Part shown: in pieces, positions 3,411-3,656 of the stretch | How positions within the stretch are numbered: position 1 is the stretch's first letter | Layout of the letters: every line of letters starts with the position of its first letter | Assembly: GCA_934167485.1 (NCBI GenBank) | Contig: CAKPKL010000002.1 | Coordinates: 16,422 to 80,421 of the forward strand | Direction: 5' to 3' | DNA from: an uncultured Bacilli bacterium | Lineage (GTDB): Bacteria > Bacillota_I > Bacilli_A > RF39 > UBA660 | DNA: 64,000 nucleotides | The notes under the pieces: model-generated | Told to the model about the DNA's origin: nothing | What the model saw: only the letters and a program-made list of their open reading frames with translations | Databases searched by the model: none | Made by a program: the position numbers and the translations under genes

Positions 3411-3656
3411 TTATACAGTTAATGGATTAAAGAACAATAGCATAAACGCAAAAGCAAATAGTAACAATATGAAAATTGCTAAAATTATTAATATAGTCAT
3501 AACAGAGTGAATAACTTCACCTTTTGTCTCAGGATTACGACCAATTGCTTCTGCTACCTTAGAGCCTAGAATTCCTACACCTATACCTATACCTAAAAAG
3601 CATAAACCAAGCATAGTACCTATAGCTTGTACAGTTGAAGATAAAATTGCTTCCAT
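3411..3656 (-). CDS. atpE: F-type ATPase c-subunit-like hairpin protein lacking the helix-2 ion-binding carboxylate
   Basis: 81 aa. Helix 1 is Gly-rich ([27 protein letters not shown]), matching the canonical GxGxGxG...ARQPE loop. Helix 2 ([29 protein letters not shown]) contains no Asp or Glu. RBS AGAGGTG is upstream. Confidence 0.75.

Follow-up and report, generated by a model that had tools for sequence, protein, structure and literature searches.

What could the rotor ring of an F-type ATPase be for once it has lost the residue that carries the ions? The carboxylate in helix 2 of subunit c and subunit a are together regarded as the irreducible core of Fo, and the question is raised by a small gene in a 64,000-nucleotide stretch of DNA (contig CAKPKL010000002.1; hereafter the window) from an uncultured Bacilli bacterium. 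The gene, at positions 3411–3656 on the minus strand, encodes an 81-residue c-subunit-like proteolipid, for which an initial annotation of the window had described the hairpin layout of a c subunit, a second helix free of Asp and Glu, and an Ala in place of the essential acid, and for which it had proposed, in view of a missing subunit a as well, an ion-inert ring acting as a membrane anchor or passive rotor. The analysis presented here supports the ion-inert ring, as far as sequence can speak to it, in that the ion site has been lost family-wide and no subunit a was found in the window or in the related loci, and we consider it reasonably likely that the 81-residue protein builds the membrane ring of an accessory motor, derived from an F-ATPase, in which ion transport has been given up.

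The c-subunit hairpin is well recognizable in the protein, which matches the Pfam family PF00137 (ATP-synt_C) with 33.5 bits over residues 11–73 (gathering cut-off 24), has two transmembrane (TM) segments by hydropathy (residues 9–27 and 55–73), and combines a glycine-rich first helix (G22-x-G24-x-G26-x-G28) with a polar loop (G39-R40-N41-P42-E43); a Shine-Dalgarno-like AAGAGGTG lies 5 nucleotides 5' of its ATG. Its scores against the NCBIfam equivalog models for subunit c are sub-threshold, with 36.7 against a cut-off of 71 for NF005363, the best of them, and 22 against 43.95 for TIGR01260. When the protein is compared by phmmer with c subunits of solved structure, it aligns without gaps at E = 3.5e-8 to 5e-7, the best matches being the c subunits of Acetobacterium woodii, of the chloroplast and of Ilyobacter tartaricus, with A. 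woodii c1 on top. In the alignment with spinach chloroplast c (4mjn), residue n of our protein pairs with residue n+1 of the spinach protein, so that Glu61 corresponds to Ala60 and Gln28 to Val27, and the alignments with the I. tartaricus and A. woodii subunits have the same register. A MAFFT alignment, the canonical c sequences of which match the corresponding stretches of the phmmer alignments, likewise places A60 in the column of E. coli D61, Bacillus PS3 E56, I. tartaricus E65, spinach E61 and yeast E59. Counting 18 residues on from the loop proline (Pro42), as had been done originally, thus leads to the same residue 60 and the same Ala as do the family alignments. All ion-site positions (60, 27 and the flanking 61–63) are now occupied by aliphatic or small residues, and the protein contains no Asp or Glu after E47, helix 2 included. 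E47 itself, considered as a candidate for the ion-column acid, was rejected, every alignment being gapless and placing it 13 residues on the N-terminal side of that column.

The loss is a property of a large family. Among 5.8 billion proteins searched there were 1,226 homologues, of which the best 120 are nearly all 80–82 residues long and 72–99% identical, and come from gut metagenomes and from metagenome-assembled genomes (MAGs) labelled Bacilli, Tenericutes, Firmicutes or Ca. Merdicola; an acid in helix 2 was seen in none of those homologues among the 1,226 that were read. An exhaustive HMMER search of representatives of clusters at 50% identity gave 131 matches at E up to 1e-3 and 31 at E up to 1e-10, and full-length divergent members of the family, down to 38–40% identity, still lack the acid. 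Glu-bearing c subunits first turn up in that search at E around 1e-6, and the carboxylate-free proteins are for this reason best regarded as a discrete family. Of 42 distinct members of the family taken from species-representative genomes, 20 have Thr in the ion column (position 60), 15 Ala, 3 Ser, 2 Val and 2 Met; neither Asp nor Glu is seen there in any of them, nor at any position beyond 47. The gene is under strong purifying selection, with 35 synonymous and 6 non-synonymous codon differences between the window and its relative L005, an uncultured Bacilli MAG from rabbit gut that is the closest among the loci listed. A sequencing error in helix 2 can accordingly be set aside as the source of the missing acid, the loss being common to all 42 sequences and the gene being held by selection.

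The distribution of conserved residues along the protein is telling as to which functions may have been kept. Invariant or nearly so in the 42 sequences are the four glycines of helix 1 (G22, G24, G26 and G28), E36, the loop G39-R40-N41-P42-E43, and T8 near the N-terminus. Within helix 2, variability is highest in the segment around the former ion site (positions 54–62; mean frequency of the commonest residue 0.58), whereas the outer-leaflet end of the helix (positions 63–78) reaches a mean of 0.85, with F67, F69, L73, L74 and P78 invariant. As read from the alignment, this pattern is the inverse of that known for canonical c. In canonical enzymes the loop of subunit c contacts gamma and epsilon, and the glycine motif packs the ring. 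Because loop and glycine motif are near-fixed and the former ion site is variable, we read the family as having probably retained ring formation and docking to the central stalk around an ion site that is functionally dead, with the extracytoplasmic end of the ring as a likely constrained interface.

The second half of the ion path, subunit a, was sought across a wider set of loci, obtained by scanning the alpha-like protein encoded nearby against one genome per GTDB species, which yielded 52 loci. No protein of the cluster matched PF00119 or an NCBIfam model of subunit a; there was none in the 64-kb window, nor in more than 50 related loci as judged by Pfam, NCBIfam, PDB profiles and a fold search of the sole polytopic protein. 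PF00119 was equally absent from the precomputed Pfam marks on the related loci, and no unassigned open reading frames (ORFs) are left over inside the related clusters. A positive control was provided by the nearest Glu-bearing c subunit (P0171), which sits in a normal I-a-c-b-delta-alpha-gamma-beta operon in which the same pipeline marked ATP-synt_A, ATP-synt_B and OSCP. The absence of subunit a noted for the window at the outset therefore holds for the related loci too.

The sole polytopic protein of the cluster, present in every cluster, is a protein of about 176 residues with five TM segments, which evolves fast (13–23% identity across loci) and has a Leu as its sole near-invariant column. 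It has no invariant charged residue across loci, Arg included, and consequently no counterpart of the essential Arg of subunit a. No PDB profile matched it, and its AlphaFold2 (AF2) model (predicted local distance difference test, pLDDT, 76.6) had no significant fold match in Foldseek. We examined this five-TM protein as a hidden subunit a and rejected it for want of an invariant Arg and of any profile or fold similarity. In one locus (L051:5782-6999) it is fused with the anchored protein of about 240 residues that accompanies it elsewhere into a single protein of 405 residues, and the fusion suggests that the two act as one unit.

In contrast to Fo, from which these two elements are missing, the F1 head appears to be complete. 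The alpha-like protein (444 residues; 1308–2642, minus strand) matches PF00006 with 249.6 bits and Bacillus F1 alpha with 326 bits, its residues 10–428 aligning to 12–431; it carries the Walker A motif GDKKTGKT and keeps the N-terminal segment ahead of the beta-barrel, and its C-terminal domain is about 60 residues shorter than that of canonical alpha. The gamma-like gene (530–1342, minus strand) matches PF00231 with 88.3 bits (cut-off 39.9), the likely true start being the ATG at 1318, which gives 262 residues as in the orthologue of the related contig L057 (262 residues). Of the beta-like gene, the window holds by translation the N-terminal 175 codons (1–525, minus strand; GTG start at 525), including the Walker A motif GGAGVGKT. 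Its orthologue in L005, which is full-length and shares 81% identity with the fragment present in the window, scores 395 bits against F1 beta and keeps GGAGVGKT, GERSREG, DNMYRF, PADDLTD and a DELSEED-like EELSDEDK. The alpha-, beta- and gamma-like proteins exceed the Pfam domain thresholds and fall short of the NCBIfam cut-offs for canonical equivalogs. In the position of epsilon there is a short protein, which in a divergent cluster (L061; 84 residues) matches PF02823, ATP-synt_DE_N. The catalytic and torque-transmitting motifs of F1 are, by their sequences, intact, and head and stalk look functional. In one Bacilli lineage (L001:11015-13552 and L002–L004) the alpha-like proteins, 771–845 residues long, bear an extremely acidic, repetitive C-terminal tail of 330–400 residues built of EEPVMEEAYAVPAEEVV units, the number of repeats varying between samples.

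A candidate for the stator is the 249-residue protein encoded between c and alpha (2660–3409, minus strand), that is, in the atpF-atpH position. It has no sequence-level homology to b or delta in searches of Pfam (including PF00430 and PF00213), NCBIfam and PDB profiles. Its AF2 model (pLDDT 84.6) comprises a long helix (residues 2–75) that starts with a TM segment (residues 3–21), a disordered linker (76–96), a helical bundle (97–201) and a small beta domain (206–246), and the top 33 Foldseek matches in the PDB are all delta/OSCP proteins or mycobacterial b-delta fusions (best E 1.5e-3, probability up to 1.0, about 160 aligned columns). Because the match list is uniform and the gene stands in the atpF-atpH place, we read the modelled protein as a probable shortened b-delta fusion, that is, as a putative stator.

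These genes form part of a cluster with a wide distribution. The 52 loci include uncultured Bacilli or 'Tenericutes', many Lachnospiraceae, Peptococcia, Erysipelotrichaceae and Oscillospiraceae, the Lachnospiraceae including MAGs of Roseburia and Butyrivibrio, an isolate of Ca. Merdisoma and Kineothrix alysoides KNHs209, which is in culture. Lachnospiraceae usually encode a canonical F- or V-type ATPase; if the same holds for the hosts here, the small Bacilli genomes among them, the cluster would be an accessory one. The usual gene order runs from a giant protein (1.7–2.3 thousand residues) through an anchored protein of about 470–800 residues, c, the b-delta-like protein, alpha, gamma, beta, a protein of 83–104 residues, the five-TM protein (about 175 residues) and an anchored protein of about 240 residues to a second giant. 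In the window the edge interrupts the operon inside the beta gene, and the remainder can be followed in the L057 contig (90.8% DNA identity to the window), in which beta (452 residues) is followed by proteins of 83 residues, of 176 residues with five predicted membrane helices, and of 235 residues with an anchor, the operon ending at a convergent MgtC gene. The c-like protein is the most conserved gene product of the cluster, its identity to the window across loci being 60–93%, compared with 56–83% for alpha, 48–81% for beta, 38–77% for gamma, 18–58% for the 249-residue b-delta-like protein and 22–35% for the giants. In the majority of the 52 species-level loci the ATPase genes have TM-anchored giants as neighbors, and so they do in a TGA-recoded lineage: in a distant version of the cluster (L061:1-20255 and L062), in which the c-like protein is 40% identical and again without the acid, it takes a code with TGA as a sense codon (4 or 25) for the flanking ORFs to fuse into giants of 1,831, 780 and more than 1,521 residues.

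The cluster varies in several respects. A rearranged order, alpha, beta, epsilon-like, five-TM, gamma, is found in a number of Bacilli or 'Tenericutes' (L011, L030–L033, L036, L037, L040, L045 and L053). At L063:1352-5579 the genes for alpha, gamma, a 547-residue beta and an 80-residue protein come immediately after a further divergent c that lacks the carboxylate (P0137, 46% identical), so that no b-delta-like gene separates c from alpha. The MAG CAYWRB01, labelled Hungatella sp. (L016, L044, L048 and L052), holds two to three copies of the cluster on different contigs, which could be due to paralogy or to mixed strains. In L047, a complete 1.46-Mb Bacilli MAG chromosome (CP091726.1), the alpha, gamma and 249-residue genes are fragmented and c is intact; the fragmentation could reflect frameshift errors of long-read assembly or real decay.

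Within the window, the c-like gene lies in a tight minus-strand operon, all further genes of which, as described here, are also on the minus strand. Directly upstream of c, in the usual place of atpB, is the gene of a 472-residue anchored protein (3670–5088; TM 9–27), the extracytoplasmic part of which has only weak fn3/Ig-like Pfam matches, and an orthologue of which stands directly upstream of c in most related loci. It is preceded by the gene of a giant surface protein of 1,890 residues with an N-terminal TM anchor (5109–10781; TM 36–54), which matches no Pfam or NCBIfam family and which has a homologue of 1.7–2.3 thousand residues in the same position in most related loci. A second giant surface protein, of 3,051 residues (11269–20424; TMs 36–54 and 3024–3042), is anchored by a TM segment at either terminus and contains glycine-rich GLUG-type repeats (PF07581); most related loci have homologous giants beside the ATPase genes, usually downstream of them. 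Between the two giants is the gene of a 154-residue protein with an N-terminal TM or signal anchor (10808–11272; TM 8–26), which overlaps the 3,051-residue gene by 4 nucleotides at that gene's stop and for which neither Pfam nor NCBIfam gives a family match; its membership in the system is uncertain. The same is true of an 808-residue secreted protein at the upstream end of the same-strand gene run (20480–22906), which has a hydrophobic N-terminal segment and a SpaA-type prealbumin-fold (adhesin- or pilin-like) domain (PF17802, 33.8 bits). The GLUG motif and the SpaA domain are all that Pfam and NCBIfam identified among neighbors and giants, with no Gli or MIB/MIP-type matches.

The rest of the 64-kb window holds no further ATPase genes and is otherwise ordinary chromosome, encoding IleRS, DnaE, RuvAB, Tex, FtsW/RodA, SepF, DivIVA and an LtaS-like sulfatase; the bacterium is very AT-rich (24.8% GC), has the standard genetic code and possesses genes for cell wall and division, and scans of the window for tRNAs and Rfam families came back empty. 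Further upstream of the 808-residue gene and on the same strand, an ABC ATPase and two ABC-2-type permease-like membrane proteins are encoded (23895–27125, minus strand), separated from that gene by ORFs of 90 residues and of 215 residues, the latter (23198–23845) being highly charged. Two proteins of about 380–400 residues (27796–28995 and 48899–50032, both minus strand) begin with a prepilin-type methylation motif (PF07963), the second also containing DUF6273, and look like pseudopilins with large C-terminal domains. A 229-residue protein (39588–40277, minus strand) matches the collagen-like triple-helix repeat PF01391 exactly at threshold.

How might these parts work together? Ring formation, rotation, ion-inertness and coupling to the surface proteins are what we infer, and a mechanism built on them would run as follows. 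The F1 head (alpha3beta3), together with gamma and the short protein in the epsilon position, would hydrolyze ATP and turn the central stalk, to which the carboxylate-free c ring would stay docked through its invariant R-N-P loop, while the 249-residue b-delta-like protein, as the stator, would tie the head to the membrane. As there is neither a carboxylate nor a subunit a, no ion path would exist; the ring would do no more than turn in the lipid under the drive of F1, and the rotation itself would be the output. Turning against membrane-anchored partners, for which the five-TM protein, the anchored proteins of about 240 and about 470 residues and the TM anchors of the giants are the candidates, the ring could then act mechanically on the giant surface proteins whose genes flank the cluster. 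TM helices of other, accessory proteins can sit inside V-type c-rings, and one possible coupling, by analogy, would have a TM anchor lodged in the lumen of the ring. An F1-driven rotor of this kind is favored over a mere anchor because of the three genes that follow beta in the relatives, the stator-like protein, the wide spread of the cluster and the link with giant proteins. The concept agrees with models proposed for the mycoplasma Type 2 (gliding) and Type 3 (MIB-MIP) ATPases (PMC11864180, PMC12994834).

A ring without an ion site has, on the other hand, no obvious need to turn, and it might instead constitute a static platform, a membrane dock on which the F1-like hexamer acts in the manner of FliI or of the ATPase of a type III secretion system to unfold, export or assemble the giants, so that rotation would not be the output. 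The homology of F1 to FliI and SctN, visible here in the 190–220 bits that alpha and beta score against FliI/SctN models, would fit such a platform, as would the unusual anchors of the giants and the adjacency of their genes to the ATPase genes. We nevertheless consider it unlikely, because the b-delta-like stator stalk, gamma and the DELSEED-type beta loop have been kept and would make no sense without relative motion of rotor and stator; moreover, alpha and beta score far higher against F1 (326–395 bits) than against export ATPases, Pfam scans of the cluster detected no export-gate homologues (FlhA/FlhB-like), and a mere dock would hardly need to be kept at the level of identity reported above for c across bacterial classes, the outer-leaflet end of the outer helix included. 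It may also be asked whether ions still pass by another route, with D/E47, H/Q50 or backbone sites carrying them and the five-TM protein serving as a new kind of subunit a. Position 47 is acidic in all 42 family sequences (Asp in 35, Glu in 7), position 50 is mostly His or Gln, and a conserved polytopic membrane protein accompanies every cluster, all of which could be claimed for such a cryptic pump. Position 47, however, lies about 3.5 helical turns (13 residues) to the cytoplasmic side of the ion column, where it adjoins the polar loop outside the membrane core, and canonical c subunits have Asp, Lys, Leu, Val or Thr there; the five-TM protein offers neither an invariant charge nor any sequence or fold similarity to subunit a, and nowhere is the c-like protein less constrained than in the mid-membrane stretch of helix 2, which together make a cryptic pump very improbable. 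Scarcely credible, finally, is that we are dealing with a decaying ATP-synthase remnant or with an error of sequencing or assembly in helix 2. The broken cluster of L047 and the numerous fragmentary or chimeric family members in metagenome protein sets could be taken in that sense, but intact ORFs occur in more than 50 species-level genomes of several classes, the best 120 of the 1,226 homologues are of nearly constant length, synonymous changes far outnumber non-synonymous ones, the substitution is family-wide and the catalytic motifs are intact.

There are also observations that weigh against the ion-inert motor itself. One of them is that helix 2 has, at its cytoplasmic end, a conserved acid (D/E47) together with H/Q50, and the link from ring to surface proteins is one of gene neighborhood only. 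The delta-like assignment of the 249-residue protein combines a uniform match list with marginal E-values (best 1.5e-3) and TM-scores of at most 0.41, and its stalk helix is short, with about 50 residues outside the membrane, so that the disordered linker would be needed to reach the top of F1. The 83-residue protein in the epsilon position aligns with Bacillus PS3 epsilon weakly by hhalign (E = 0.008, in a plausible register), hhalign to E. coli epsilon failed, and the protein matches neither Pfam (PF02823) nor any PDB profile.

A bolder proposal, which we put forward as a tentative possibility, is that walled gut Firmicutes, cultured Lachnospiraceae included, possess in this cluster a new class of rotary motors, mechanical in output and powered by ATP, in which F1 spins an ion-dead ring whose outer-leaflet face or lumen grips the TM anchors of the giants and so cranks or rotates them, and which may be an ancestral or sister design of the mycoplasma Type 2 and Type 3 motors, dating from before c-ring and stalk were replaced. 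A family this large and this strongly conserved, in which ring, stalk and F1 are kept and the carboxylate and subunit a are dropped, would show that the rotor of an F-ATPase is reusable as a purely mechanical device, and the 'F1-like X0' idea would extend beyond mycoplasmas. Its architecture lends itself more readily to interpretation, since a rotor ring and a stator can still be recognized in it, and cultivable hosts such as Kineothrix alysoides are available. There is a practical side as well, since in NCBI and JGI records (e.g. P0066, P0073, P0079 and P0085) members of the family without the carboxylate bear the name 'F0F1 ATP synthase subunit C' or 'F-type H+-transporting ATPase subunit c', and metabolic reconstructions of gut MAGs may for that reason wrongly credit their hosts with an ATP synthase.

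How, then, does the cluster compare with known systems? As far as family profiles tell, it belongs to none of the four named types, namely canonical F1Fo, the N-ATPase, and the mycoplasma ATPases of Type 2 and of Type 3. Against the canonical NCBIfam models, alpha (atpA) scores 464 (cut-off 554), beta 456.7 (462.85) and gamma 53.8 (194.45); against the N-ATPase (alt_F1F0) models the values are 386.9 (750.5), 408.3 (752) and 24.8 (282), respectively; the Type 2 models give 392 (600) for alpha (glide_MMOB1660) and 386.9 (850) for beta (glide_MMOB1670), and the Type 3 models 312 (520) for alpha (MSC_0619_alpha) and 397 (570) for beta (MSC_0618_beta). With the canonical enzyme (atpIBEFHAGDC), and especially with enzymes having the Na+-type c of anaerobic Firmicutes and Fusobacteria, the cluster has in common the order c, (b, delta), alpha, gamma, beta, epsilon, as well as the c hairpin with its glycine motif, R-N/Q-P loop and C-terminal NP[LF] motif, and the catalytic residues of F1. 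It differs in having no atpB, a c without carboxylate, a b and delta that appear from the model to be fused and shortened, an epsilon-position protein without the C-terminal helices and an alpha with a shortened C-terminal domain, and in adding the five-TM protein, the anchored proteins and the flanking giants. The likeness to the N-type ATPase (atpDCQRBEFAG) would be that of a second, accessory F-type operon beside a normal enzyme. N-ATPases keep subunit a and an ion-binding c and have no delta, whereas the cluster lacks subunit a and, on the evidence of the model, probably possesses a delta-like domain. Carboxylate-free c hairpins are known from inside working rings of hetero-oligomeric or duplicated proteolipids, in A. 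woodii c1 and the V-type 16-kDa proteolipids. The other hairpins of those rings, however, keep the carboxylate, subunit a is present and ions are still pumped, whereas the only c gene of the cluster is one without a carboxylate.

The nearest parallel in function may be that with the mycoplasma F1-like X0 ATPases, which drive gliding in the case of Type 2 and the MIB-MIP system in that of Type 3 (PMC3369863, PMC11864180, PMC12994834). Common to these and to our cluster are an extra F1-derived set of alpha-, beta-, gamma- and epsilon-like proteins, non-Fo membrane proteins and large surface proteins encoded alongside, and the lack of subunit a; in mycoplasmas ATP hydrolysis is believed to be spent on mechanical work at the surface of the cell and not on moving ions, and the gene content suggests that the same may be true here. 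The clusters of Type 2 and of Type 3 encode a 12-TM protein and have no c and no b or delta (PMC12994834, PMC11864180), and their alpha is without the N-terminal stalk-binding helix (PMC11864180, PMC12994834), whereas our cluster keeps a c homologue, a b-delta-like stalk and the alpha N-terminus; the 12-TM protein was not found in its loci. Its gene order (c, b/delta, alpha, gamma, beta, epsilon) is canonical, its hosts are walled Bacilli and Clostridia rather than mycoplasmas, and its beta-like proteins score higher against Bacillus F1 beta (370–395 bits) than against the G1 beta of mycoplasma Type 2 (324 bits). A 2026 survey was confined to Mollicutes, and a full-text search of the open literature found no published description of the cluster. 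Taken on the strength of its genes, the cluster would be a variant, found beyond the mycoplasmas, of the F1-derived, non-bioenergetic motors already known.

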